Positions 36,499-62,826 of a stretch of 64,000 nucleotides of DNA are shown here, piece after piece; within the stretch, counting starts at the first letter, position 1, and each line of letters opens with the position of its first letter. Under the pieces are notes generated by a model. That model was not told where the DNA came from. It searched no databases and saw only the letters and a list, made by a program, of their open reading frames with translations. The stretch is taken from IMG/VR virus record IMGVR_UViG_3300009130_001466, positions 32,001 to 96,000 of that record; one strand, written 5' to 3'. A program made the translations under genes and the position numbers. This DNA comes from a virus.

Positions 36499-38025
36499 TT
36501 ATCCAAGGATATTTTCGCGACTAAAAGCAGCAGCGAACTTATCCTTCAAAGTTTTTCCAGAAGCTTGGGCTTCGTTATTGTTGGGAATTTCTTCGTTGGT
36601 TTGCTCTGCATTTGCAAGAGCTTCTTCAACGTCGACTCCTTCTTCTGTTTCTTCTGCTTCTTCGGAAGCTTGAGAAGTAAGGCGTTTTTCGATTTCTGCA
36701 TCAACACGAGCTTTAACTTCTTCTTCGAATTTAGCTTTAGCTTCTTTATTTTTGGATGACCAAAAAACTTCAAGCTCGCTCTTAAACGAAGCGAAAGATT
36801 CTTCAGTGTCGTCAAGACCTTTAATCTTTTCGGCGATGAAAGCGCTGTCACTTTCTTCGAGGTCGTAAAGAGAATCGATTTCTTCCATGCGAGCGTTGAA
36901 ACGAGCGACTGCTTCTTCAGCAGTTTTTGCAGCTTCAAATTCAGCAATGCGTTGTTGAGCAGCCCCAAGCTCTTCCTTGATAGATTCTACGGAAGCTTGA
37001 AGCTCTTCTTTCGCAGAAGCGATTTCGGCCTTTTCTTGTTCCGCAGCCTCAAGAGAAGCCTTGTACTCATCATCTTTTTGTTTAATGGCGTCCGCAAAAG
37101 TTGCAGTCATTCCAGCGATGGCTTCTTCGGAGAATTTCTTCTCAGTAAGAGACGCCTTTATTTCTGATAGTAGAGTTTCTAAGTCCATGATTTTTGTATT
37201 GTTTACAGTATTTTTTAAATTTTGTGAAATTTTGTCAGATATTTTTTCTAAATGTGCTGATTGAGACTCATTAGATTCATCTGGAGTCTCTTCTCTTTCT
37301 TTGTACTCGTTGCTGATTACGCCTTTGACATTTGCAGCTGGCTTCATGGTGAAGCCAATGCCAAGCGGGTAAACGTTACCAGTAATCAATCGATAAACAG
37401 GTCGACCATCTTCAGTCGTTCCTTTGCCACCAAAAGCCCTCAACATTCCTTTCATTTCTGTGATTTGTTGTGGGTCAGAAATAATCTCTGCGTCTTTTAA
37501 ATTTTTGCTACCAACAGCGATCTTGTATTCGCTAAAACCAATTTCCCAACTTGCAGAAACAGTTTGGTGTGTTTTGCTTTTTGGATCAGTGCTTCTTCTT
37601 AAGGTTTCAAAAAACTCTTTATCTACAGTTTTGTAAACAACCGAACCCAAAGCAATATTAAAAGGGCTTTGTTCGTTTTCGTCTACATTAACCAAAATAG
37701 TGCTGTCAGAATAGTCACTAAATCCAGCATTTACAATATGTCCTACAATCTTTTTCTTATCGTGCTCTATATTTGTAGGTTTATGAACGAACTGCTGAAC
37801 AGAATCGATAGCAGTTTTTGTACTCATGCCATCTCCGTTTTTATTAAACTCATTGACGACTGCCGCATTAAAAGCCACACCCATCAAGTCAATATTTTTA
37901 TCTAAATCTACAGAGCTTGGAATTAGACTTCTTAAATTTTCTACGTTAGCTTTTGAAATATCAATACCGCCAATTTCCTGGCAGGCTGTAACCTCAAAAT
38001 CAAAGGTTGTTGTATACTTATGCAT
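36499..38025 (-). CDS. Prohead protease-scaffold fusion
   Basis: NKNGDG, PTNIEH, SASWE, PAA protease motifs, then an acidic coiled coil. Confidence 0.75.
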   Translation of the reverse strand: MHKYTTTFDFEVTACQEIGGIDISKANVENLRSLIPSSVDLDKNIDLMGVAFNAAVVNEFNKNGDGMSTKTAIDSVQQFVHKPTNIEHDKKKIVGHIVNAGFSDYSDSTILVNVDENEQSPFNIALGSVVYKTVDKEFFETLRRSTDPKSKTHQTVSASWEIGFSEYKIAVGSKNLKDAEIISDPQQITEMKGMLRAFGGKGTTEDGRPVYRLITGNVYPLGIGFTMKPAANVKGVISNEYKEREETPDESNESQSAHLEKISDKISQNLKNTVNNTKIMDLETLLSEIKASLTEKKFSEEAIAGMTATFADAIKQKDDEYKASLEAAEQEKAEIASAKEELQASVESIKEELGAAQQRIAEFEAAKTAEEAVARFNARMEEIDSLYDLEESDSAFIAEKIKGLDDTEESFASFKSELEVFWSSKNKEAKAKFEEEVKARVDAEIEKRLTSQASEEAEETEEGVDVEEALANAEQTNEEIPNNNEAQASGKTLKDKFAAAFSRENILG

Positions 38026-38491
38026 CTTTTTTAGGATTCTCATGGGTATATCCCATTTTTTTCATTTTGAGATGATCCTCATAAGTTTTCGCTTCATAGC
38101 TTTTGCCAGTTTTTGGATCATACATCATGTGTGGTTTGAAGTCTTTTTCTGCCGCTTCAGATTTAACATTCTTTCCTTCTTTTTTCATTTTTTCAAGGAT
38201 TGCTTTTTGCAAGGGCTTTGGAAGTTTCTTTTGGCTGTCTGTTAGTCCTGCTTCTCCCACCTCGTTCATCATAGCTCTCATCTTGTCATACTGCATTGAG
38301 CAGGCTGCGTATGTTTCTTTATCTCCCATTTCTGCTGTATCAATGAGAGCTTTATCATCCATAGCGCAAACACTCATGTATGATTTATACATAGCTTCCT
38401 CTATTTTACTATATTTTTTAGCAATCGAGATTTCTATATCTCCGTTAGAGCGATCTATATTCGCTACAAGTGGATTTTTAATTTCTTTCAT
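38018..38491 (-). CDS. Hypothetical protein
   Basis: 157-aa ORF, KPHMMYDPKTG motif. Confidence 0.6.
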   Translation of the reverse strand: MKEIKNPLVANIDRSNGDIEISIAKKYSKIEEAMYKSYMSVCAMDDKALIDTAEMGDKETYAACSMQYDKMRAMMNEVGEAGLTDSQKKLPKPLQKAILEKMKKEGKNVKSEAAEKDFKPHMMYDPKTGKSYEAKTYEDHLKMKKMGYTHENPKKDA

Positions 38492-52184: not shown

Positions 52185-52212
52185 TTGACAACCGCAATGG
52201 ATTCCACATACT
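52185..52212 (+). promoter_or_regulatory. Early sigma70-like promoter (representative of >10 copies)
   Basis: TTGACA-16-CATACT, ATG 7 nt later. Confidence 0.75.
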
Positions 52213-52219
52213 GTAAGAC

Positions 52220-52399
52220 ATGATAAGCAATAAAGAAATCGACAACGTCATTGACCACCTCACGCAAGCGAGCTACAACACTCAGCGCAAGCTGTACCCT
52301 GAGATCAAAGCTAGTCGTTGGGGCAAAGTTTACGGCGAGGGCGTAGCAAAAAAACTTGAAAGTAATTTTCAAAAACACTTGACAATCGCACAAAAATAA
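52220..52399 (+). CDS. Small hypothetical protein (59 aa), paralog of 53924-54106
   Basis: VIDHLT..SY...RKL.PEI..SRWGK.YGE. Confidence 0.7.
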   Translation: MISNKEIDNVIDHLTQASYNTQRKLYPEIKASRWGKVYGEGVAKKLESNFQKHLTIAQK

Positions 52400-52413
52400 C
52401 CATACTATAAATC

Positions 52414-52599
52414 ATGAGTAAAATTGAATCAATAATTGAAGCTGAGTGCTACGATTGGAAGCCTTCCGATATTGAATGGTCTCTGCGAAAAGAAGATGTA
52501 CCAGAAATTGCAAGAAACATTAAGAAGCTTCTCATTGAAGAGATTAAAAACTACGCAGAACATATTGACGATGCGGTTCGATTTATAGACGATTTTTAG
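52414..52599 (+). CDS. Small hypothetical protein
   Basis: Own TTGACA/CATACT promoter. Confidence 0.65.
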   Translation: MSKIESIIEAECYDWKPSDIEWSLRKEDVPEIARNIKKLLIEEIKNYAEHIDDAVRFIDDF

Positions 52600-52638
52600 G
52601 GACTCTAATATCACACAAAAATAACCATACTATATAAC

Positions 52639-52797
52639 ATGAAAACTAAGATTACATACGAAGAATACGACATGATGTGGTTTGATCTCCGCGAAGGAAA
52701 GATCAGCGAAGAAGAATGGAGAGCGTTCTGCGATGAGCTTTTCGAGCAAGAGCTTGAGCGTAACAAGGGCGTAATGATTCGCCTAAAGAATCGTTAA
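52639..52797 (+). CDS. Small hypothetical protein (52 aa)
   Basis: ATG after CATACT; MKTKITYEEYDMMWF.. Confidence 0.65.
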   Translation: MKTKITYEEYDMMWFDLREGKISEEEWRAFCDELFEQELERNKGVMIRLKNR

Positions 52798-52859
52798 AAA
52801 AAATTAAAAAAAGTTTACGATAAGCTTGACATCACCCCTTGAATCCCTATTGTATACAT

Positions 52860-53069
52860 ATGATAACAAATAAAACATACACAGTCACCACAGTCGAATT
52901 CTCTAACACAGGCGAGATGCGCGAGCAAGTGCGCGACTTCCCTAAGTCTCGTGAGGGTCTCGCCGAAGCTTACGCTTTCGCTAATCCTTGCGACGAGTGG
53001 GCGATCTGGTTCGGCGACGAGCTGGTAGACGACAGCTGCTGCACCCCTGCTCACCTAGTGGTAGCGTAA
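52860..53069 (+). CDS. Small hypothetical protein
   Basis: TTGACA-16-TATTGT, ATG 6 nt later. Confidence 0.65.
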   Translation: MITNKTYTVTTVEFSNTGEMREQVRDFPKSREGLAEAYAFANPCDEWAIWFGDELVDDSCCTPAHLVVA

Positions 53070-53081
53070 CACCGAAGCCCC

Positions 53082-53158
53082 TAAGTCGCTGACAGTCAAC
53101 GACTTACGGGGCCGAGGCCGCCCCGCGCGCGTAAGTGCTTGATACTCAACGACTTACG
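53082..53158. repeat. Double-palindrome element copy 1
   Basis: Arm centres 53094/53144. Confidence 0.95.
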
Positions 53159-53237
53159 ACACGAAAAAAACTTTAAAAAACTTAAAAAAACTTTGCGATA
53201 AGCTTGACTTGCCACTTCTTTAACCTATACTGTAAGC

Positions 53238-53417
53238 ATGATTAAATATAACGAATTGCACGACCTCTCTTGCCAATACTGGGATGCTCTTGACCGCCAA
53301 GATTATGACTGGGCTGACTTCATCGACTCATGCCTTGAGCGTGAAGGCGTGGAGCGTCTTCCTCGCGAAGATTGCGAAGAGCCCATCCTTGACCTTTCTC
53401 CTCTCGAAGTAAACTAA
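53238..53417 (+). CDS. Small acidic protein (59 aa)
   Basis: TTGACT-16-TATACT, ATG 6 nt later; D/E rich. Confidence 0.65.
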   Translation: MIKYNELHDLSCQYWDALDRQDYDWADFIDSCLEREGVERLPREDCEEPILDLSPLEVN

Positions 53418-53421
53418 CCAA

Positions 53422-53757
53422 ATGACGATTATGACAAAAGCAATACTAGTAGACCCTTTTCTCCCCGCGATCTCAACTGTTGAGGTTGACGGGTTCGAAG
53501 ATATCCAACGCATGATCGATTGCCGCTGCTTTACTTGTGTGAGGTTTCCCGATGGCAAGCATGTCGCATACATTGACGACGAAGGATTAATCAATGGTAC
53601 GCAAAGAGGCGTTAGGTTTATCGACAAGATTTACCCCGATGCCTTAGCTGGTCGCGTTCTTATCCTTGCCGACGACGGGCAAGGTGGCGACGCTGACTGC
53701 GAGCTGACAGGCGCTGATATCCAAGCGATGATAAAAGGAATCGTGGAATTCGGATAA
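53422..53757 (+). CDS. DUF3846-like protein
   Basis: IQRMID..YIDDEGL..LAGRVLI pattern. Confidence 0.65.
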   Translation: MTIMTKAILVDPFLPAISTVEVDGFEDIQRMIDCRCFTCVRFPDGKHVAYIDDEGLINGTQRGVRFIDKIYPDALAGRVLILADDGQGGDADCELTGADIQAMIKGIVEFG

Positions 53758-53771
53758 AAAAGCTTGACACC

Positions 53772-53850
53772 CGTAAGTTGCTGATTATCAACGACTTACG
53801 GGCCCAGGGCCGCCCGCGCCGCGCAAGTGCTTGATAACCAAGGACTTGCG
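53772..53850. repeat. Double-palindrome element copy 2
   Basis: Arm centres 53786/53836. Confidence 0.95.
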
Positions 53851-53923
53851 TAATCTAAAATAAAAAACAAAAAAGTTTCCAAAACGCTTGACAACCACAC
53901 AAAATTTCCTATTCTATAAGATA

Positions 53924-54106
53924 ATGAAAGACACAAACAAATTAATCACCGAAGTAATCGACCACCTAACTTTTTCTAGCTATGCTCACAACCGCAAGCT
54001 AAATCCCGAAATCTCACCTTCTCGTTGGGGCAAGATCTACGGAGAAAAAGAAGTTGTTTTAATGGAAAAAACTTTCCAAAATACCTTGACAACCGCAAAA
54101 AAATAA
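53924..54106 (+). CDS. Small hypothetical protein, paralog of 52220-52399
   Basis: Shared SRWGK.YGE motif; own promoter. Confidence 0.7.
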   Translation: MKDTNKLITEVIDHLTFSSYAHNRKLNPEISPSRWGKIYGEKEVVLMEKTFQNTLTTAKK

Positions 54107-54120
54107 TCATACTGTATAAC

Positions 54121-54279
54121 ATGAACATTAGAAAAGAAATTAAAGTCTCATCAATTCTAACCGACGAAGTATTGCGTCAACAAAAAGAGTTAATCTCTAA
54201 AGGCTTTCAGCACGTCAATAACATTAAAAATGGTCGTCTTTCGGATGGTTACACAATGATTTTTGTTAAACAAGGGTAA
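54121..54279 (+). CDS. Small hypothetical protein
   Basis: TTGACA-16-CATACT, ATG 7 nt later. Confidence 0.6.
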   Translation: MNIRKEIKVSSILTDEVLRQQKELISKGFQHVNNIKNGRLSDGYTMIFVKQG

Positions 54280-54283
54280 TAAT

Positions 54284-54433
54284 ATGAAAATTTGGGAACT
54301 TTTAACTCTGGTGCTTTTTGGACTCATTCTTGGGTTGGCAATGTTTGTCGGGCTTAAGCTCGACGACAAAGCTCAACAAACGAAAGAAGCGACATGGGAA
54401 CGCTTCGAGGAAATCGACAACGCAATCAAATAA
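54284..54433 (+). CDS. Small membrane protein (49 aa)
   Basis: N-terminal hydrophobic helix. Confidence 0.55.
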   Translation: MKIWELLTLVLFGLILGLAMFVGLKLDDKAQQTKEATWERFEEIDNAIK

Positions 54434-54434
54434 A

Positions 54435-54572
54435 ATGAAAATAACTATTGACAAAACAACTGCAATTTGCTTGACAGTCGCGGCTTGCACTTACTTCATC
54501 GCAAATAAAATTAGCTGGTTTCAAAAAATGTTTGACACTGTCTCAGGGGTTGCGATAAACTCAATCATGTAA
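54435..54572 (+). CDS. Small hypothetical protein (45 aa)
   Basis: Stop TAA lies inside repeat copy 3. Confidence 0.5.
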   Translation: MKITIDKTTAICLTVAACTYFIANKISWFQKMFDTVSGVAINSIM

Positions 54573-54646
54573 GTGCTTGAATATCAACGACTTACGGGGC
54601 CAGGGCCGCCCGCGCCGCGCAAACCCTTGATAAACAACGACTTACG
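54569..54646. repeat. Double-palindrome element copy 3
   Basis: Arm centres 54582/54632. Confidence 0.95.
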
Positions 54647-54705
54647 CAACTAAAAAAAAGAAAAAGACTCTTGACAACCGCACAAAAATAACCATCATAC
54701 AAACT

Positions 54706-55038
54706 ATGAAACCACTAAGCAAAACACTGACAGAACTAGGGATTGCATTTAGCTTTCCTATTGAGATTAAAGACGCTAATGGCAAGCCGACTTACCGAGA
54801 GTACAGCGATGGCTACTGGTATAAGTTTGAGTATGATGACAATAATAAAATAACTTACTGCAAGAATAGTCATAACTACTCGTATAGGTGTCAGTATGAT
54901 GACAATGGCAACAGGAATTACTTCGAGGACAGCAATGGTCTCCGAGAAGGTGCGCCACGTCCAGCCAAATCAACTAATACCTGCGAAGGCAAGGTTGTCG
55001 AAGTGGACGGGATCAAATATAAATTAACAGCACTATGA
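54706..55038 (+). CDS. YD-like repeat protein
   Basis: EYDDNNK / QYDDNGN repeats; VVEVDGIKYKL tail. Confidence 0.7.
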   Translation: MKPLSKTLTELGIAFSFPIEIKDANGKPTYREYSDGYWYKFEYDDNNKITYCKNSHNYSYRCQYDDNGNRNYFEDSNGLREGAPRPAKSTNTCEGKVVEVDGIKYKLTAL

Positions 55039-55466
55039 AAAAATTAATCTTACTAACATTCGCCATCTGCGCATCAATAGCACAAGGCGCGACATTAACT
55101 GATTTAATTGTTGCTTTAGAAAAAGTGGAAAGCAATTGCAATCCTTCCGCTTATAACGAAAGCGAAAAAGCGTTAGGCTCTCTTCAGATTAGACCTATCA
55201 TGTTGGCTGATTATAATCGCATCTATGGCACGAATATAAAGCACAAGCAAATGTCAAACCGCTTGACTTCCCATAATATCGCAATCGGAATCTTTCGTCA
55301 CTATGAAAAGTATATCAAACGTAATGGCGAAAAGTTAAATGCAAAACATCTTGCCTTCGTTTGGAATGGAGGAGGATCAGCTTGGAAACGGGTTGCAAAT
55401 CCGAAAAGCGACAAAAAGCAAAAAAATCTAGAAATTTACTGGACAAAGGTCTCAAAGCATCTGTAA
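55035..55466 (+). CDS. Secreted lysozyme-like / transglycosylase-fold protein
   Basis: Signal peptide; LEKVES..P.A..ALGSLQI; WNGG; YWTKV. Confidence 0.75.
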   Translation: MKKLILLTFAICASIAQGATLTDLIVALEKVESNCNPSAYNESEKALGSLQIRPIMLADYNRIYGTNIKHKQMSNRLTSHNIAIGIFRHYEKYIKRNGEKLNAKHLAFVWNGGGSAWKRVANPKSDKKQKNLEIYWTKVSKHL

Positions 55467-55490
55467 GTTACTGGTATTCAACGACTTACG
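55463..55490. repeat. Single-arm element copy 4
   Basis: GTAAGTTACTGGTATTCAACGACTTACG. Confidence 0.9.
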
Positions 55491-55578
55491 CAACAAAAAA
55501 ACTTTAATCTTTTTTCAAAATCGCTTGACAGCCTAACCTTTTTTCTTATTCTTTTTTAAGCATTAACAACATCACTTT

Positions 55579-55773
55579 ATGATTGATAAACGAACAGAAA
55601 AACAAATCAAGAGGCTCTTCTCGGTGGTAGTAGACGACTCACTCATGGACGCTGACTTTGAATATGTCCAAGCAGCTATTGCTTGCGTTCGTAAAGAGTG
55701 TGATCAAGTTGAAGAATACATGAAGGAGATGGATAGACTTGCTGATGAAGATTCTATATCTAACACAATATGA
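55579..55773 (+). CDS. Small hypothetical protein
   Basis: Promoter upstream. Confidence 0.6.
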   Translation: MIDKRTEKQIKRLFSVVVDDSLMDADFEYVQAAIACVRKECDQVEEYMKEMDRLADEDSISNTI

Positions 55774-55862
55774 GACAATTCACCAACGGCGACACGGGCG
55801 AGGTCAAGACTATAGCTGAGGTCTTTGCCCTAATCCGCGAAGAGAGAGAAGGAGAGCCGTAA
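55770..55862 (+). CDS. 30-aa ORF (possibly truncated by the repeat)
   Basis: ATGA overlap with previous gene; stop inside repeat copy 5. Confidence 0.4.
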   Translation: MRQFTNGDTGEVKTIAEVFALIREEREGEP

Positions 55863-55936
55863 GTCTCTGACAGTCAACGACTTACGGGCCCAGGGCCGCG
55901 CCCGCCGCGCAAGTGCTTGATATACAACGACTTACG
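55858..55936. repeat. Double-palindrome element copy 5
   Basis: Arm centres 55872/55922. Confidence 0.95.
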
Positions 55937-56005
55937 CAACAAAAAAACTTTAATCTTTTTTCAAAATCGCTTGACAACCTCACCAAAATTCTTATTGTTT
56001 TAATT

Positions 56006-56188
56006 ATGACTACTACTGATTCCTTCTCTGATTCTTCTTTTGACCCTTGGGCTGACTTGTCCGAGGCCGAGTTCGCTGAGTTCGAAGCCGATATGTTGCG
56101 CGAGCAACAGGAGCGTGAAAGCGCCGAGGCGATGGCTCACGAAGCTCAGCTTGAGCGCGAGCTTATGGAAAGAGCCGACTTCCGCTAA
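56006..56188 (+). CDS. Small acidic helical protein
   Basis: ATG after TTGACA..TATTGT; E/D rich. Confidence 0.65.
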   Translation: MTTTDSFSDSSFDPWADLSEAEFAEFEADMLREQQERESAEAMAHEAQLERELMERADFR

Positions 56189-56195
56189 GGGGTTG

Positions 56196-56273
56196 CGCAA
56201 GCCCTTGACAGTCAACGACTTACGGGGCCGAGGCCGCCCCGCGCGCGTAAGTCCTTGATACTCAGCAACTTAC
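56196..56273. repeat. Double-palindrome element copy 6
   Basis: Arm centres 56210/56260. Confidence 0.95.
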
Positions 56274-56402
56274 AGAGGTTCCCGAAATTCATTTCGGGAA
56301 CATACATAACTGCTTGATCATTAGATATATACGCTATTTGTCTTGTATTTGCGTTCGATTTGCGTTCGATTTGATTTGGCGCTATTTTTTTTCAAAAAAG
56401 GG

Positions 56403-56454
56403 TTGACTAATGCCCAAAACAATACATAATGTAAAACATAATCGTTCTTTAACA
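56403..56454 (+). promoter_or_regulatory. Promoter plus boxA-like antitermination site
   Basis: TTGACT-16-CATAAT; CGTTCTTTAACA (cf. boxA TGCTCTTTAACA). Confidence 0.7.
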
Positions 56455-56465
56455 TTTTACAATTT

Positions 56466-56869
56466 AGACAAGCGAGTCCTAGAAGCTGGTAGATGAAATT
56501 GCTTTAGTAGGCTACCAAGGTTAAGCAAATCGTTTGTCTCTTATCTAACTCGAAGAAAGCCAGGTAAACAGCCGAGCATGGGGATCTGCTGGCAATGCGT
56601 CGAGGACAGCGTGGGGGTGCGTTGATAAGATTGATTAGTTAAACACCCTCAAGATTTAACCTCGCTTGGATGACGTCTGCCTTAGAAGGGCATCCCCAAG
56701 CCAACTGGATTCGCAAATAGCGAAGAGGGAGTTGCCACTGCTCTGAGGTTTTAACATTTTAAGCGGAGAATTTGAACGCTCGACCTAAACGCCTAAAGGG
56801 TTCACCCAAGCGGAAATGAGTCGAAAGACCGAGAGCGCCAACCAATTGAAACAGGTTATATCCGCACCA
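56466..56869 (+). ncRNA. Putative multi-domain structured ncRNA unit ending in ACCA
   Basis: No ORF in track; several closed helices; GCGGA/TCCGC-ACCA terminal module. Confidence 0.55.
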
Positions 56870-56954
56870 ATCTAAAAAAACTATTGACAAAGCTCAACTT
56901 TTGTGATTTAATATAATCTTAACAATCGAAAATCCAAAACGGAGAAAAGAAAAC

Positions 56955-57206
56955 ATGAAAAACCTAAAACTAAATCCAATCCAAAAAACTCGCCTTGCTA
57001 TTCGTCGCGCTTTCGCTAAGAATAATATGGCTCAAATCACCTACAAGAAAAAGTCTGATGAGACTGTTGGCTCTTATGTCATTGACATGAATTTCATTGA
57101 AGACTTGGGCGATATGTTCAACACCTATTCTTACGCCACTGGCGCGAAGCACAGCGGCATCCGCTCCTTCTATAAAAACCGAATCGAAAAAATTAAACTT
57201 GTGTAG
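56955..57206 (+). CDS. WYL-like (Sm/SH3-fold) small protein
   Basis: ITYKKK..GIRSFYKNRIEKIKL resembles the WYL RxFxxxRI motif. Confidence 0.55.
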   Translation: MKNLKLNPIQKTRLAIRRAFAKNNMAQITYKKKSDETVGSYVIDMNFIEDLGDMFNTYSYATGAKHSGIRSFYKNRIEKIKLV

Positions 57207-57217
57207 CGTGATTGGTT

Positions 57218-57337
57218 AACGTGTGTGTGCCGCCTCGTCTTGTGGTTAGGGCGAGGCGGCTTAAATTTCTTTTGTTGTAGTCGTGTGCAACGTGTGTGTG
57301 CCGTCTTACCTTTTGTGTATGGGGTAAGGCGGCTTTT
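57218..57337 (+). terminator. Tandem duplicated TG-tract + hairpin
   Basis: Two AACGTGTGTGTGCCG...GGCGGCTT units. Confidence 0.6.
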
Positions 57338-57359
57338 CGCTATATGGATCAAGAGTTCT

Positions 57360-57437
57360 GTAAGTCCTTGATGGTCAACGATTTACGCGGCGGGGGCCAG
57401 CGCAGACCCGCAAGTGCTTGATAATCAACAACTTACG
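57360..57437. repeat. Double-palindrome element copy 7
   Basis: Arm centres 57373/57423. Confidence 0.95.
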
Positions 57438-57507
57438 AATTCAAATAAATTTAAATAAATTTTTAAAAAGGGTTGACTCGTCGAATTAAATAATACATTA
57501 TACTAAT

Positions 57508-57798
57508 ATGAAAATGACAAAAACAACTACAGAAAACCTCACCCTTGAAAACTCATTCGGAACAATCCGCGAAGAAAATGGAGTCCAGATGAATATATCC
57601 GTGCATGTCCAGCCAAACAAAAATTATGGTTCGTTTGAAATGTATGACGAAGAAACTGGAGGTGAAGAATGGTATGCCGAAGGAGGTCTTTGGTTTGAGG
57701 GCAAGGAACTGGTTGACTACGATGGAGTTTTTGCTCTATCTCCGTCAATTATTCAAATCTTAGAAGACAAAGGTTATGATGCTTCTTATGCAAAGTAA
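57508..57798 (+). CDS. Acidic hypothetical protein
   Basis: GGLWFEGKELVDYDGVFAL motif; promoter upstream. Confidence 0.7.
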   Translation: MKMTKTTTENLTLENSFGTIREENGVQMNISVHVQPNKNYGSFEMYDEETGGEEWYAEGGLWFEGKELVDYDGVFALSPSIIQILEDKGYDASYAK

Positions 57799-57836
57799 TA
57801 CTTGACTAATCACAAAAAATAATACATCATATCAAC

Positions 57837-58178
57837 ATGAAGAAAATAACCTTATCACTACACCGCAGCGAAGATGAACCTTTTGTTCAGAAATGGGAGG
57901 TCGCTCGCAAATGTGTTTTTGCTGTTCGGCTGAACGTAGAGCATATCGAATATCCACATATTCCGTCAAAGCTTGCTGAGCTTTTGTTTCACGTTACTAA
58001 CGCGCCGACCGAGCTTATCACTAAAACACACGAAAAAATTCTTTTGGCTCTGTGGGAAAACTGCTCGGACAAGAGAACCTTTCACTCTACAAGTGTCGGA
58101 GATGTCGTTAAGATCTGTGATTGTAACGGACACCCAACAACTTTAATGTGCAAATCAGTTGGATGGGAGGAGCTATAA
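57837..58178 (+). CDS. Hypothetical protein
   Basis: HSTSVGDVV..C.SVGW motif (YodL-like end). Confidence 0.65.
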   Translation: MKKITLSLHRSEDEPFVQKWEVARKCVFAVRLNVEHIEYPHIPSKLAELLFHVTNAPTELITKTHEKILLALWENCSDKRTFHSTSVGDVVKICDCNGHPTTLMCKSVGWEEL

Positions 58179-58357
58179 TGACAATCGATCAAATAAATTC
58201 ATACTGCTACGAACATTACGAAGACGGCGGCGATATTGTAGTAGAGTGCATGGAAGATGAAGAGAAGCTCAAACGTTTTGAAACTTTGGAAGACCTCAGA
58301 CAATACATTGAGATACGCCAAGAGCATCGCCGAGAAATTGAATCAACCATTTGGTAA
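58178..58357 (+). CDS. Small acidic hypothetical protein
   Basis: TAATG coupling; HYEDGGD.VVEC. Confidence 0.65.
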   Translation: MTIDQINSYCYEHYEDGGDIVVECMEDEEKLKRFETLEDLRQYIEIRQEHRREIESTIW

Positions 58358-58358
58358 T

Positions 58359-58706
58359 ATGAAAGTAAGAGTATACAGAAACCTGCACAAAAAATGTTTT
58401 TCGGTTCAAGAGAAGACAGAAAAAGGCTGGCGAGTCAAACGCCACGCCACTTCTATCGTGCTTAAAAACGCCTCGTTTCGTGTTTCTGAAGCTGGACGCA
58501 AAAGAGTGTTAAAAGAAAAAAGAAAAAATGTTCACGCTTTTATAGAGGGCTATGAAATAAAAAACAGCACACAAAAACACAAGTGCGAAGTTTGTGTTAG
58601 CTACAATCCTTACAAGTGTGACCACTTTGAAACTAACTCCCACGATCCAGTTTTTTTTGCTCGACTCGCTCATGTTAATCTCTCAGGGTGCAAAATCCAT
58701 AAGTAG
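58359..58706 (+). CDS. Conserved phage hypothetical protein
   Basis: VYRNLHK..FSV, RKNVHAF, YNPYK; stop inside repeat copy 8. Confidence 0.75.
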   Translation: MKVRVYRNLHKKCFSVQEKTEKGWRVKRHATSIVLKNASFRVSEAGRKRVLKEKRKNVHAFIEGYEIKNSTQKHKCEVCVSYNPYKCDHFETNSHDPVFFARLAHVNLSGCKIHK

Positions 58707-58776
58707 TTGATATTCAACGACTTACGCGGCCGCGGCCGCCCCCGCGTCGTAAGTCCTTGATATTCAACGACTTACG
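58700..58776. repeat. Double-palindrome element copy 8
   Basis: Arm centres 58712/58762. Confidence 0.95.
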
Positions 58777-58924
58777 CAACTTTGACTGCTCTGGGGCTCA
58801 AGTTCCGTGCCAACTTTTTTTCTAATTATTTTTTTATTTTTTTGGTAAACGCTTGACACCACATTGATTTTCTCATATGATGTAATCTCACAATTAAATA
58901 ATAATACTATATAAAGTTAATACT

Positions 58925-59725
58925 ATGAACATCGAAAATACACACCCTGCAAATCAAGAACTCCTTCGCCTTAACGTGTGCGAATCAAAACAGTGCGACT
59001 TCTCTAAGGTTCAAGCTGTCTCTACTCCCGACGCTTCTGATCGTTGGACTCCTATCGCTCACGATGCTTTGGTTGGTCAATTCCGCGAGTCTATCGGCAA
59101 CACTGATCTTGAGATCGTGAATGAGCATCACGCGTTGCACCGCTATGGTCAACGCTACTTTGGCTTGTTCCAAGTCAAGGGCGTAGGTCGCAAGCATGGC
59201 GATGACGTTGGCACTGTTATGTGTCTTCGCAATTCTCACGATAAGGCTTTCCGCGCTGGCATCTCTGCTGGTGATGCGCCTTTCGTTTGCTCCAACTTGA
59301 TCTTCTCTAACGAGATCGTGCTTGGTCGCCGCCATACTACTCACATCATGCGCGACTTACCGCAAATCATTTCACGTGCGATTGGTCAACTTATGGAGTC
59401 TTGGATTACTACGGACAACCGCATTGACTCCTACAAGTCAACCGAGATTGATGATCGTGTGGCTCACGACTTAATCCTGCGCGGCTTTCAAGCTGGCGCG
59501 TGTGGCAAGACGCAAATTGCTGACATCTTCACACAGTGGCACAAGCCCGAACATGAGAACTTTGAGGGTCGCGACCTTTGGAGTCTTCAAAACGCCTTCA
59601 CGAACGTGTGGAGGGGCAACACGCTCAACACGGCGAACCGCTCAAGCTCGCTCTACTCCGTGCTTGACACCTTCGCGGCTCACGCCAAACCAGTTGAGGG
59701 CGAATTAGTTCTCAACGCTTCCTAA
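58925..59725 (+). CDS. DUF932/DUF945-like protein
   Basis: LRNSHDK....FVCSNL, RRHT, LWSLQNAFT. Confidence 0.75.
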   Translation: MNIENTHPANQELLRLNVCESKQCDFSKVQAVSTPDASDRWTPIAHDALVGQFRESIGNTDLEIVNEHHALHRYGQRYFGLFQVKGVGRKHGDDVGTVMCLRNSHDKAFRAGISAGDAPFVCSNLIFSNEIVLGRRHTTHIMRDLPQIISRAIGQLMESWITTDNRIDSYKSTEIDDRVAHDLILRGFQAGACGKTQIADIFTQWHKPEHENFEGRDLWSLQNAFTNVWRGNTLNTANRSSSLYSVLDTFAAHAKPVEGELVLNAS

Positions 59726-59733
59726 CGGCTCTC

Positions 59734-59765
59734 GCCTCACCCTTCGGGGTGGGGCTTTTCTTTTT
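59734..59765 (+). terminator. Intrinsic terminator (UUCG loop)
   Basis: GCCTCACCC-TTCG-GGGTGGGGC plus T-run. Confidence 0.8.
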
Positions 59766-59777
59766 CTGCTTGACATT

Positions 59778-59856
59778 CGTAAGTGCTTGATAATCAACGA
59801 CTTACGCGGCCGCGGCCGCCCCCGCGTCGCAAGTCCTTGGTATTCAACGACTTACG
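59778..59856. repeat. Double-palindrome element copy 9
   Basis: Arm centres 59792/59842. Confidence 0.95.
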
Positions 59857-59981
59857 CAACTTCTTTCACGCGCTGGTCGCTGAGCTTGTCAAGTCTTTTC
59901 TTTAGGTTTTTTTTGAAAAGTTTTTTTAATTTATTTTAAATATCGCTTGACTTGCGCGACAAATTCTCAGATAATGCTTTT

Positions 59982-60689
59982 ATGACTAAACTACTAAACA
60001 ACGGAAACTCGAAAACAATCAAAGGCGAAAAACTTGGATGGACTACTTTTGGTCTACACCTTGCGCCTTTTAACTTGGCTGGCAAAAATGTTTGCGCCCA
60101 TGCTTCGGCTGGATGCGCTGCTGCTTGTCTCAACACTGCTGGACGCGGCGCGATGTCGAATGTGCAAAAATCTCGCATTGCAAAAACACAAAAATTCTTT
60201 GCCGATAAAAATGCTTTCGTATGGCAACTTGCTAAAGAGATTAGCAACGCTGTTAAACTTTCCGCAAAAAAAGACATGAAGCCATGCTTTCGTCTCAATC
60301 TTACAAGCGATCTGCCTTGGGAAAACATAAAAGTTGAATCGCACGGAAAAAAGCTTTCGCTTATGGAGATGTATCCCGATGTGCAGTTTTACGATTATAC
60401 CAAGTCTTTTCCGCGTATGCAAAAATATCTAAAAGGTGAAATGCCAAGCAACTATCATCTTACCTTTTCGCGTAGTGAATGTAATGACAACTTAGTTGAC
60501 TTGGTTCTCAAGCTTGGCGGAAATGTCGCGGCAGTCTTTCGCAATGAGTTTCCTAAGTCTTGGAAGTCTGTGGAAGTTGTCAACGGTGACGAAACAGACT
60601 TGCGTTTTTTAGATGCGCAAAATAAAATTGTTGGACTTGTGCAAAAAGGACTTGCCAAGAAGGACGAAACAGGCTTTGTTATAGGCTAG
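59982..60689 (+). CDS. Phage Gp88-like protein (radical-SAM-like Cys motif)
   Basis: VCAHASAGCAAACL, FRLNLTSD, QFYDYTK, NYHLTFS, GDETDLRFLD. Confidence 0.75.
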   Translation: MTKLLNNGNSKTIKGEKLGWTTFGLHLAPFNLAGKNVCAHASAGCAAACLNTAGRGAMSNVQKSRIAKTQKFFADKNAFVWQLAKEISNAVKLSAKKDMKPCFRLNLTSDLPWENIKVESHGKKLSLMEMYPDVQFYDYTKSFPRMQKYLKGEMPSNYHLTFSRSECNDNLVDLVLKLGGNVAAVFRNEFPKSWKSVEVVNGDETDLRFLDAQNKIVGLVQKGLAKKDETGFVIG

Positions 60690-60741
60690 TAAATGATAAT
60701 AATTCTAACCCTCTTAATCTTCTTAATGATAACACTCAACC

Positions 60742-60948
60742 ATGAATCCTACTGAACGATATAATCTAATCAAAAAAATCTGTGAAAGCAAAAATCAAAT
60801 CAACTCGCACGGGCAACTGCCCACGACCGAAACCGACTTGCAAGACGAATTCTTACGCTTCCAAACTAGCGTCGAACCTCTTGCAACTAAACAAGACTCA
60901 AGGCTATGGCAAAAAAGTTTCTTCCAAAACTTAGTCTTCGGCAGTTAG
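60742..60948 (+). CDS. Small hypothetical protein
   Basis: 68-aa ORF. Confidence 0.5.
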   Translation: MNPTERYNLIKKICESKNQINSHGQLPTTETDLQDEFLRFQTSVEPLATKQDSRLWQKSFFQNLVFGS

Positions 60949-61050
60949 AAAAAACCGTTAGGAAAGGGTTAGGCTTAATGCCTTCCCGCCCCTTTCGCGA
61001 CCGCTCGAAATACAACCGCAAAAACAAACACAAAAAAACGTTAGACTAAA

Positions 61051-61227
61051 ATGAACTACAGTAAAAAATTCGGCTTCTATAATCCTAAAACTAAAATTGC
61101 TCAAGTGTATGACGGCTCCAAGCGCACTCCAACTAATACCGTTGTAAATGGTAAGGTTGGCTTTAGCATACCAAAAATTTTTGTCGGTAAATGCTCGCGA
61201 GCGCAGTTTGATAAACTGATCTCATAA
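61051..61227 (+). CDS. Small basic protein (58 aa)
   Basis: Stop TAA inside first arm of repeat copy 10. Confidence 0.55.
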   Translation: MNYSKKFGFYNPKTKIAQVYDGSKRTPTNTVVNGKVGFSIPKIFVGKCSRAQFDKLIS

Positions 61228-61345
61228 GCGCTTGAGCTTCAACGACTTAGGGATCGGCTAGAATTCCCTAAGTCGCTGGTAGTCAACGACTTACGCGGCG
61301 GGGGCCGCCCCCGCGTCGTAAGTGCTTGATATAGAACGACTTACG
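61225..61345. repeat. Triple-arm element copy 10
   Basis: Arm centres 61237/61281/61331. Confidence 0.93.
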
Positions 61346-61425
61346 CAACTTGCTCGCAGGAGACAGAGCGGGCTTTTTTTAAAAATAATAGTTGACAGAA
61401 CCATTTTTTTCGTTAGACTGTAGTC

Positions 61426-61620
61426 ATGATAATCAAAAAAGATGACCTCCTCCGCCCCACTCGCAACCACGCTCGCACCGTCAAGGTAATGTTTACCTAC
61501 TCTTGTGGGAAACTCGCCATGATCTACTGCCCTACTGTTGGGCGTGGCGATGTCAGGCACATCGACCTCTACGAAGGTTGGGCTATCGAGCGTGACGGGA
61601 ATCACGTCGGGACTGTGTAA
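61426..61620 (+). CDS. Small hypothetical protein
   Basis: TTGACA-16-TAGACT, ATG 6 nt later; stop inside repeat copy 11. Confidence 0.6.
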   Translation: MIIKKDDLLRPTRNHARTVKVMFTYSCGKLAMIYCPTVGRGDVRHIDLYEGWAIERDGNHVGTV

Positions 61621-61693
61621 GTCCTTGCTAGCCAACGACTTGTGGGGCGGGGGCCGCCCGCGACGCGCAACTCCTTGATATACAACAACTTAC
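61617..61693. repeat. Double-palindrome element copy 11
   Basis: Arm centres 61630/61680. Confidence 0.93.
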
Positions 61694-61837
61694 AAAACTT
61701 CAGTCTCAATATAGTCTCATTTAATTTTTTTGGTTTGGTATATTATTAAGTCTTTATTTGGTTTGGTATAGATTCCCACTCATATTTGGTATAATACAAA
61801 TTGTCAAGCTTATTTGGTTACTATATAATTCGGCACG

Positions 61838-61870
61838 AAAAAGCCGCCACTCCCGAAGGAATGACGGCTC
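61838..61870 (-). terminator. Terminator after RuvB-like gene
   Basis: AGCCGTCATTCC-TTCG-GGAGTGGCGGCT plus T-run on minus strand. Confidence 0.75.
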
Positions 61871-61893
61871 AACACACAACACGCTATGAAATA

Positions 61894-62826
61894 CTACATA
61901 TCTTTTAATATGTTTACACCTTTGCCGCTTATCTCACGCTGACCATTGATCTTCATTAGACCACGCTTGAGAAGATAGAGTTCTGCTTCTTTCTGGATTG
62001 CTGTGCGACTCATACCTGTAACGGCTGAGAGCATCTGAAGTGAGCAGTTGCCACGCTCCTTGAGGATGCTGAGAATCTCAAGCTCAATGTTGGACAACCC
62101 AAGAGGCTTGATACCCAAGGTGTGAGACATCTTCTCCCAATCCTTTTTGGAATAGTCCTTGTTATTCACAGACTCGCAGTAGAGCATGATCTCTTTGGAA
62201 CGCTTGACTGCTGAACGAGCGTTGCCCCTTGTAGTCTCAGCAATCTCTGTGAGAATCCCATCCTCAAACTCAATCTCGCCACAAACCAAATCAATAATTT
62301 CAGATAGCTCGTCAACTGTATAAGGCTTGAAGTCTACGATAGTGAGGCGATCCTTGAAGGGAGCAAACAACTTATCCATCTCAGTAGTAGCGAAGATGAA
62401 ATTTTGTTGGGCAAAATCAAAAGCAAAAATCTGTTCGCCATGATGATACTCTTTGAAGTTGCTCTTCTCTGTGTTGAATACAGTAAGGAAGGCGTTAACC
62501 AAATCCTTGGGAAGCATGTGCGCCTCGTCCAATAGGATGGTAATCTCGTTGTGCATCACAATGGGCAAGAAGATTTGCTCAAAGAAAGCATTAGCATTTT
62601 TAATAGTGGAGCAGTTGATCTCAAGGAATGGACGTTGACTGCCATCCTTGTTCTTGAGATTGGAAGCATACTCCTTAGCGAACTCAGTCTTACCCAAGCC
62701 CTTTGCCCCACTCAACATAAGAAATGGTGCGACTCCAGTAGAATTTTGTGCTTTAGCGTAAAAGGAAAGCTGACGCTTTACCTCGTCTTGACCGATTAGG
62801 TTTTTGAACATAGTTTTAGTAATCAT
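61894..62826 (-). CDS. ruvB: RuvB-like AAA+ ATPase
   Basis: IGQDEVK, GAKGLGKT, LLDEAH, ATTE, F.DRL, RGNAR, C-terminal winged helix (E.YLL..GL). Confidence 0.8.
   Translation of the reverse strand: MITKTMFKNLIGQDEVKRQLSFYAKAQNSTGVAPFLMLSGAKGLGKTEFAKEYASNLKNKDGSQRPFLEINCSTIKNANAFFEQIFLPIVMHNEITILLDEAHMLPKDLVNAFLTVFNTEKSNFKEYHHGEQIFAFDFAQQNFIFATTEMDKLFAPFKDRLTIVDFKPYTVDELSEIIDLVCGEIEFEDGILTEIAETTRGNARSAVKRSKEIMLYCESVNNKDYSKKDWEKMSHTLGIKPLGLSNIELEILSILKERGNCSLQMLSAVTGMSRTAIQKEAELYLLKRGLMKINGQREISGKGVNILKDM

Follow-up and report, generated by a model that had tools for sequence, protein, structure and literature searches.

A repeated boundary element at the 3′ ends of early transcription units in an uncultured marine phage lineage and its probable part in module exchange

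In one lineage of uncultured marine phages, early transcription units are bounded at their 3′ end by a double-palindrome element of about 80 nt, and the swapping and reordering of modules at its copies would most likely reflect ordinary recombination between these copies, and not an integron-like capture that truncates genes. Judged from comparative evidence, namely a handful of non-independent metagenomic contigs taken from IMG/VR, we consider it somewhat more probable than an even chance that this boundary repeat, by analogy with the promoter-early stem-loops (PeSLs) of T4-type myoviruses (Arbiol et al. 2010, PMC2839356; Comeau et al. 2014, PMC4122927), serves as a substrate for homologous recombination at the 3′ ends of early units.

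Anatomy and placement of the element

In the window (the whole stretch of 64,000 nt that was analysed), the arm profile detected 22 near-palindromic arms of 28 nt, organised as 10 doublets together with a single arm (55464) and an extra one (61225-61252) (Table 1), all of which (22/22) score better on the + strand and are confined to an 8.6-kb block (53080-61697), with none elsewhere in the 112.8-kb record. When up to two mismatches are allowed, matches to the arm motif number 29 in the window vs 0.93 expected. Each doublet is laid out as arm A, a GC-rich centre and arm B, with a period of 50 nt from arm to arm. Since these stretches of ~80 nt are near-identical, share a single orientation and recur every 0.3-1.5 kb, their copies may be expected to recombine. 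The elements lie 0-16 nt past the last stop codon (values of the gap from native stop to arm are 0, 3, 5, 8-12, 16 and 21 nt), and the next UP/TTGACA promoter is found 23-128 nt downstream, a promoter-like site following 10 of the 11 elements in the promoter scan. The marine phages that carry the element are apparently abundant.

The right half of the arm is much better conserved than the left half, which points to sequence-specific recognition by some factor and counts against the boundary-repeat reading. A 13-nt block, TCAACGACTTACG, is almost invariant across the 22 arms and keeps a fixed orientation relative to transcription, its palindromic partner being variable. The arm starts with G-TAA-GT and holds a TGA 8 nt further along, so that two frames meet a stop, the third being shut by arm B, located 50 nt on (2 mod 3). 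Flush or imprecise joins are therefore tolerated, since joining or a small deletion at the left edge would still end the protein within a few codons. Both arm frames are used as stops in relatives (TAA, n=9; TGA, n=7, among 55 doublets). The ORF list confirms that six upstream ORFs of the window end inside an arm (stops at 54572, 55466, 55862, 58706, 61227 and 61620), as the initial annotation had noticed; five of them use the TAA of GTAAGT, and the sixth (at E8) a TAG at arm positions 5-7 in a different frame. Such in-arm stops are probably a by-product of genes packed flush on the element.

Table 1. Copies of the boundary element in the window, with the stops and boxes that adjoin them
Element	Coordinates	Strand	Associated features
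E1, doublet	53080..53161	+	gene g9 stop 12 nt upstream
E2, doublet 53772-53853 with TTGACA box 53764-53769	53764..53853	+	
E3	54568..54649	+	TAA 54570-54572 is the stop of 45-aa g14
e4, single hybrid arm 55462-55491	55462..55555	+	TAA 55464-55466 is the SLT gene stop
E5, 55858-55939, with the flank and promoter copied after e4	55858..56001	+	TAA 55860-55862 stops g18
E6	56196..56277	+	arm B with TCAGCAACTTACAG signature
E7	57359..57440	+	two canonical terminators upstream (57229-57333)
E8	58698..58779	+	TAG 58704-58706 in arm A stops the L5-gp82-like gene
E9, 59778-59859, with TTGACA box 59770-59775	59770..59859	+	
Extra arm 61223-61252 and doublet E10, 61267-61348	61223..61348	+	TAA 61225-61227 stops g28
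E11, final element of the block	61616..61697	+	TAA 61618-61620 stops g29

Exchange of flanks, arms and cassettes among relatives

Note that the statistics are restricted to loci whose orientation was set by a protein match, since ORF density and promoters orient distant loci unreliably. The alternative left flanks expected by the initial annotation do occur: in six related phages, five different genes lie upstream of the element that precedes the DUF932 cassette, this element and its right flank remaining the same, and the left flank of E8 is different in L112, L193, L199 and L114. L114 and L193 carry the DUF932 and GP88 cassettes in the opposite order, and in L113 the g29 cassette sits elsewhere together with its arm A. 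In addition, single genes that lack a promoter (g50, gp82-like and g14-like) occur in some phages and not in others, filling exactly the interval from the last stop to the left edge of arm A, with no recognisable repeat at the left junction of these insertions, and arm A tends to accompany the upstream gene (e.g., g50, g29 and g9). For g18 and gp82, the frame and the stop change between relatives.

Comparison of individual copies locates the exchanges within the element itself. E1 is identical to its L006 counterpart except for the first 11 nt of arm A. Identity between E8 and its L112 counterpart amounts to 22/30 in arm A, 19/21 in the centre and 28/30 in arm B, and that between E6 and L113@6114 to 21/30, 13/21 and 27/30, respectively; the TCAGCAACTTACAG signature of E6 arm B remains with the downstream non-coding region in L113. 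The e4 copy, previously described as a collapsed doublet that shares its flank with E5, is indeed followed by a duplicate of the E5 right flank and promoter region (55465-55555 vs 55911-56001, 87% over 91 nt, with 27 nt identical), and its hybrid arm, which shares 27/30 positions with arm A of the doublet that follows the SLT gene in L113 and is joined to the E5-type right flank, indicates a recombinant product. The extra arm at E10 was likewise found, and the triple arm is kept in L112. Breakpoints thus fall in the left half of arm A, between arm A and the centre, between the centre and arm B and at the right edge, as well as at promoters and plain gene boundaries, so that the idea of repeated joining holds in that the elements are recurrent junctions, but the joins are not limited to the left edge. 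Between the window and L113, gene-boundary breakpoints without repeats were located at 54278, 55031 and 61059, others being at promoters. Ordinary phage mosaicism is active here too, several breakpoints lying where there is no element, and part of the recombination credited to the elements may be owed merely to their intergenic position.

The copies also evolve in concert. The E8 and E9 centres are identical in the window and their L113 orthologues differ, and the ACTTGCG form of the right half of arm A occurs in 6 of 7 L113 elements vs 1 of 10 in the window; such genome-specific signatures and identical centres in paralogous elements argue for exchange between copies.

Contrary to the initial proposal, genes are not truncated at the arms. 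In L112, where the stop lies outside the arm, both the SLT-domain (lytic transglycosylase) protein and the 45-aa g14 protein keep their last residue, the former ending there also in the absence of a following element, and no part of the SLT and L5-gp82 Pfam domains is missing. Two -35 boxes, correctly noted as abutting arms, lie 2-3 nt before arm A of E2 and E9, and the promoter scan found no -10 for either. Their interpretation as recombination scars is contradicted by diverged relatives, in which the box at E2 is kept beside its arm (L006, L112 and L193), as is that at E9 (L112, L113, L114 and L193), which travels with the DUF932 module. Because they are conserved and move with modules, these boxes are old module parts and not fresh scars. 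A working promoter made of TTGACA and the arm was rejected, no acceptable -10 being located at 16-18 nt.

Taken as recombination between boundary repeats, these patterns suggest that the copies would recombine with one another and with the repeated promoters, presumably through general homologous or short-homology recombination, leading to cassette loss, gain or permutation, hybrid arms, arm triplets and the concerted evolution of copies.

Folding, partner proteins and competing explanations

The elements fold well, with z-scores of -0.7 to -5.5, and for 6 of 10 of them at most one of 200 shuffles does as well; a long imperfect hairpin can be formed. Covariation in 36 doublets, examined for a pair of arm hairpins and for one long hairpin, did not establish a hairpin: the level of within-arm pairing was matched by 53-57 of 500 shuffles, and the long hairpin displayed one covarying pair only, shuffles not being convincingly beaten. 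A count by hand of G-U vs A-C mismatches revealed no strand bias and therefore gives no support to an RNA-only reading. In addition, no T-tail follows the element, none was called a terminator by the scan, and the intrinsic-terminator pattern (GC-rich hairpin and U-tract) is lacking in the elements. Canonical terminators were found apart from them, at 57229, 57300 and 59734, that is beside E7 and E9, where the element is consequently not needed as a terminator. As a guess, the primary job of the element might be that of an RNA hairpin that insulates or attenuates the 3′ end of the early message or is processed there.

Searches in the record itself and in five related records (30-83% complete) found no IntI-type tyrosine recombinase (PF00589), no serine recombinase, integrase or resolvase and no RAYT/Y1 transposase (PF01797), and when a single-strand annealing protein was sought, the hits were limited to a PD-(D/E)XK nuclease, a DnaE-type polymerase, a primase and an RNase T-like exonuclease. 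Nucleotide comparison of the region with 50,697 phage records gave no match, the 514-aa ORF (36499-38043) has none in the protein search, and Rfam assigned no family to the element, its hits being tRNAs alone. With cultured phages, the terminase shares 29% identity at most, the best matches being Bacillus siphoviruses. An origin as host REP sequences was discarded, with 0 doublets in 185,579 prokaryote genomes, a collection in which one single element was present, in a phage-like contig of 38% GC. A MITE was rejected as well, given the lack of target-site duplications and of a clean empty site, the extra L112 element belonging to a replacement.

The integron-like capture initially proposed, in which the left edge of arm A (G|TAAG) is cut by a dedicated enzyme and fused to incoming DNA, much as attC is by the integron integrase, would account for the promoterless genes present or absent exactly up to that edge, for five stops being the TAA of the arm, for arm A going with the upstream gene and for an attC-like foldable hairpin. 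We consider it very unlikely, since none of the enzymes searched for was found in the six records, the variable gap between native stop and arm leaves no fixed joint, breakpoints also fall within the element and to its right, most cassettes have their own promoter, the arm ends (CGTAAGT/ACTTACG) differ from attC core sites, and neither target-site duplications nor clean empty sites accompany the insertions. A related proposal, that the doublet is a dedicated cassette-exchange signal at which a putative phage or host enzyme cuts and rejoins the hairpin-forming site, appears even more improbable; arm A would then be kept by the upstream gene and arm B by the downstream promoter, with promoterless genes added at the left edge, and, if true, a lytic phage would shuffle its genes in an integron-like manner with no recombinase of a known family.

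Passive elements, i.e., ordinary mosaicism (illegitimate recombination and selection for intact genes) whose joints are tolerated only there, would fit the breakpoints at repeat-free gene boundaries and promoters and the repeat-free left junctions of g50 and the gp82-like gene. This explanation is unlikely in view of the junctions that lie inside arms in the hybrid e4 and the triple arm of E10, the breakpoints inside the 80-nt element in three comparisons and the signs of exchange between paralogous copies. It is also rather unlikely that the arms are binding sites of a phage DNA-binding protein, acting as a roadblock or shut-off operator similar to stoperators, recombination and stop overlap being side effects. 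The near-invariant, singly oriented TCAACGACTTACG with its variable partner, the mismatches conserved at fixed stem positions, the weak covariation and the canonical terminators that adjoin E7 and E9 all speak for such docking. Nevertheless, no candidate binding protein was identified, all sites fall within a single block, their spacing from the next promoter is loose whereas the linkage to the preceding stop is tight, and compensatory changes keep the palindrome in E2 arm B and in several arms of L185, L161 and L143.

Relation to known systems and significance

As with PeSLs, the element is a repeated composite motif within a hyperplastic block of small ORFan genes, joins a sigma-70-type promoter that has an AT-rich region upstream to a G/C-rich stem-loop between genes, and bounds indels or replacements between close relatives. 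The homologous recombination between copies proposed for PeSLs (PMC2839356; PMC4122927) agrees with the hybrid arm and the permuted cassettes found here. In contrast, the element belongs to another phage lineage, not T4-like by its terminase, has no sequence homology to PeSLs, is a fixed and strongly conserved 80-nt double palindrome and keeps its position relative to the stop codon before it, not to promoter boxes. Note that terminator activity and mini-circles were demonstrated for PeSLs (PMC2839356; PMC4122927), whereas any function of the present element is putative.

With attC sites and gene cassettes the element shares imperfect palindromes at the 3′ ends of small genes, arrays in one orientation and a variable neighbouring gene content; yet the phage records lack an integrase, the core-site sequences are unlike attC, most cassettes carry their own promoter and are not read from a common one, and the join points vary, with no single fixed crossover point. 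REP, BIME and REPIN sequences are likewise extragenic palindromic doublets just past stop codons that can form long hairpins, but the present element is phage-only and not dispersed in a bacterial chromosome, has no RAYT/Y1 transposase partner, and its arms are direct repeats of near-palindromes around a GC-rich centre. The stoperators of cluster A mycobacteriophages are conserved asymmetric sites of ~13 nt, found in many copies in short intergenic spaces, in one orientation relative to transcription and often touching stop codons; they each stand alone, with neither a palindromic partner nor a doublet arrangement, and are distributed genome-wide and bound by a known repressor. The element resembles them by its asymmetric site of similar length, its many intergenic copies, its single orientation and its stop-codon contact, and differs in that its arms are palindromic, paired in doublets and gathered in one block, with no repressor identified.

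Altogether, recombination between boundary repeats would extend the idea behind PeSLs, namely that regulatory repeats double as recombination substrates through which accessory genes are shuffled as ready-to-express modules, and would widen its reach beyond T4-like coliphages and vibriophages, to uncultured marine phages of an unrelated lineage. A property absent from descriptions of PeSLs would be added, namely a boundary element which shuts all three frames and thereby makes imprecise joins harmless. The conserved 80-nt motif may in addition provide a handle for following cassette turnover in viromes.

Anatomy and placement of the repeated element

The ~80-nt element is composed of two arms, A and B, each a 28-nt near-palindrome, on either side of a GC-rich centre; copies with both arms are called doublets. 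With up to two mismatches, the arm motif occurs 29 times in the window against 0.93 expected, and a profile built from the arms recovered 22 arms, every one scoring higher on the + strand, all within a single block (see the table) and none in the rest of the 112.8-kb record. Ten doublets display an arm-to-arm period of exactly 50 nt and a GC-rich centre of 20 nt, and besides them there are the single arm e4 and an extra arm already noticed in the initial annotation. Small + strand genes make up the block, grouped into short transcription units that start with an AT-rich stretch and TTGACA, followed 16–17 nt on by a TAnnnT-type box. Of the 11 promoters downstream of elements, 9 have the ATG 7–9 nt past the -10 box, and internal genes show no visible Shine-Dalgarno motif ahead of them (both in window 52185-61430); the first genes of the units in this early block therefore look leaderless. 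Where no terminator intervenes, the last stop of a unit is 0–16 nt from the element, and the next -35 box is 23–128 nt beyond it; the element is more tightly linked to gene ends than to promoters. A T-tail is absent from the elements and the terminator scan calls none of them a terminator; canonical terminators adjoin E7 and E9.

Coordinates of the elements and neighbouring features (window positions unless a related locus, L plus number, is named)
Feature	Position	Description
Element block	53080-61697	all arms
Doublets E1, E2, E3, E5, E6, E7, E8, E9, E10, E11	53080, 53772, 54568, 55858, 56196, 57359, 58698, 59778, 61267, 61616	+ strand order
Single arm e4	55464	
Extra arm	61225	
TTGACA boxes directly before arm A	53764, 59770	no usable -10 partner found
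TAG stop	58704-58706	arm positions 5-7
ORF-free stretch	56403-56869	~450 nt between E6 and g21 cassette
Conserved part of ORF-free stretch	56651-56751	~100 nt, 81% conserved in L012
Tandem canonical terminators	57215-57335	two, 3' of gene g21
AT-rich spacer	61700-61890	after last element
Promoter match	61801-61829	11/12, in spacer
AAA+ gene	61894-62826	convergent; RuvB-like N and C domains
Doublet in MAG contig	L205 3990-4055	JAYQMT010000004.1, 210 kb
Nuclease genes	L206 7191-9525	genome 21190-23524

Folding of most of the ten doublets, into separate hairpins or into a single long one, is more stable than that of shuffled controls (z -0.7 to -5.5), and in six cases no more than one of 200 shuffles does as well. 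Across 36 distinct doublets from ten phage contigs, 81–82% of cells pair in either structure against ~33% with the partner slid, so the dyad symmetry is real. Covariation in these 36 doublets is weak: the value observed for the arm hairpins is reached by 53–57 of 500 shuffles, and the sole signal for the long hairpin is one pair (columns 30-56) with ten double changes. Compensated changes are found in individual arms (L185, L161, L143 and arm B of E2). As the right half of the arm, TCAACGACTTACG, is nearly invariant and the left half variable, with a mismatch retained at a fixed stem position, some sequence-specific reader of the arm is likely. A stoperator-like array of protein sites is a live alternative for the primary function of the element.

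Other features of the region deserve mention. The tandem terminators have the same GTGTGTGCCG lead-in before each and are kept in L113. The ORF-free stretch is entered from a promoter (TTGACT, 16 nt, CATAAT), gives no match in Rfam and is a candidate phage non-coding RNA. The AT-rich spacer carries repeated ATTTGGT(T)TGGTATA-type motifs and could represent iterons, an origin or a promoter cluster.

Stop codons and gene ends at the elements

The initial annotation proposed that genes are truncated at the arm. The six stops that it named there are real, five being the TAA of G-TAA-GT and the sixth, here corrected, a TAG in another frame; no gene is truncated at the elements. Indeed, in L112, where the SLT-domain (lytic transglycosylase) gene is followed by another gene without an element, the protein still ends at the same residue (..KVSK-H/N-L), the g14 protein has 45 aa in 3/3 phages, irrespective of a stop inside the arm or 9 nt ahead of it, and complete SLT and L5-gp82 domains are recognised by Pfam. 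Variation lies in the last few codons. As an example, the g18 stop in the window is the TAA of the arm, and with a 1-nt change in length g18 uses the arm's TGA in L112 and L113; for the gp82-like gene the stop is TAG (+4) in the window and TGA (+8) in L113, and in L193 it precedes the arm by 12 nt.

Arm A provides stops in two frames, and the third would be closed by the invariant TTGA of arm B because 50 = 2 mod 3; with the TAA and TGA of arm A and the TGA of arm B, all three frames are closed at most 61 nt from the left edge in all doublets of the block. Among 55 doublets in relatives, the upstream stop falls at the arm's TAA in 9, at its TGA (+8) in 7, at +11 in one, within 20 nt upstream in 10 and farther upstream in 19, with no upstream ORF called in 9. 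The use of both arm frames and the variable stop-arm gap match flush packing with a backstop, not a single fixed joint.

Junctions and probable exchange between copies

Before the DUF932 cassette, arm B and the right flank of the element are kept among relatives and the left gene differs: the window and L113 have the gp82-like gene there, L112 the g72 homologue, L193 a g27-like gene, L114 g42, and L199 an unrelated 93-aa gene whose TAA lies in the arm, so that the left flank is not invariant. On this point the proposal of the initial annotation, which invariant left flanks would have refuted, holds up. Right flanks of elements are also variable, and the element is absent from more distant DUF932-carrying phages. 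In addition, the DUF932/GP88 cassette order is reversed in L114 and L193, and in L113 the g29 cassette (promoter, gene and arm A) lies four cassettes further upstream. Accompanied by its own arm A, g50 stands after g9 in L006 and L112, and after g10 in L025.

Breakpoints were mapped in element pairs sharing one flank but not the other. E1 and L006 agree at 26/30 positions of arm A (four differences at its two ends), 21/21 of the centre and 30/30 of arm B, placing the break in the left half of arm A; for E8 and L112 (22/30, 19/21 and 28/30) it falls at the arm A/centre boundary, and for E6 and L113 at 6114 (21/30, 13/21 and 27/30) at the centre/arm B boundary. Further breaks between the window and L113 map to promoters and repeat-free gene boundaries. 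The flank reported as common to e4 and E5 was confirmed (87% over 91 nt, 27 nt identical); since e4 shares 27/30 positions with arm A of the complete doublet found after the SLT gene in L113 and is continued directly by the flank that lies to the right of an E5-type arm B, it is a recombinant of two arms. Moreover, the E8 and E9 centres are identical in the window and different from their L113 orthologues, and an ACTTGCG variant of the right half of arm A occurs in 6/7 L113 elements vs 1/10 in the window; paralogous copies thus evolve in concert.

The two TTGACA boxes were real as annotated, and they are poor evidence of a recent truncation, since TTGACA followed 2–3 nt on by arm A is conserved at the orthologous site of each: behind the DUF3846 gene (L006, L112, L193) and behind DUF932 (L112, L113, L114, L193). 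The sequence before the box has diverged in L114 and L193, where the DUF932 cassette stands in another order; in L114 the box is preceded by an A/T-rich tract, and the window has a terminator hairpin at that place. The box is an old, conserved 3' part of its two modules.

Lineage, enzymes and known systems

The window spans bases 32001-96000 of its source, an IMG/VR virus record (completeness estimate 83%), and codes for a terminase, ribonucleotide reductase, a tRNA cluster, two ~1,800-aa proteins, a DnaE-type polymerase and a primase. As terminase identity does not exceed 29% for any cultured phage and reaches 84–92% in more than 100 marine viral contigs, the phage belongs to a common, uncultured marine lineage. 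The doublet was found in none of 185,579 prokaryote genomes, and the single-arm pattern matched one contig, binned as a Cellvibrionales MAG (L205), where the match is a true doublet whose centre is shorter and whose right flank resembles that of E8. The surrounding 8 kb (35–41% GC) share two genes with the window phage and look like phage DNA, either a phage contig assigned to the wrong bin or a prophage-like insert; the match gives a weak hint as to the host.

As to the cassette capture evoked initially, nothing resembles integron capture, and searches of this record and of related records totalling ~370 kb gave no tyrosine recombinase, serine recombinase or Y1 transposase. Note that in L206 an RNase T-like exonuclease, an unannotated 233-aa ORF and a PD-(D/E)XK nuclease adjoin the primase and DnaE-type polymerase, a possible recombination module in which Pfam recognised no annealing protein. 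The element fails the defining tests of integrons, REP/REPIN and intrinsic terminators. The nearest described counterpart is the PeSL of T4-type phages, a repeated promoter and G/C-rich stem-loop motif in hyperplastic ORFan regions, proposed to drive modular shuffling via recombination between copies, and for which terminator activity, promoter activity and mini-circles were demonstrated experimentally (PMC2839356, PMC4122927). Our element behaves PeSL-like in every comparative test run, yet is not a PeSL homologue: the phage lineage differs, and the element, a double palindrome with a fixed 80-nt layout and conserved sequence, is tied to the stop codon, not to promoter boxes, and closes all three frames.

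Altogether, these sequence comparisons confirm what the initial annotation observed and partly support its interpretation: the elements are recurrent junctions, but genes are left intact and the joining itself is not fixed at the left arm edge, as breaks fall elsewhere in the element. The breakpoint spread, e4 and the concerted copies agree with general recombination between dispersed repeats.
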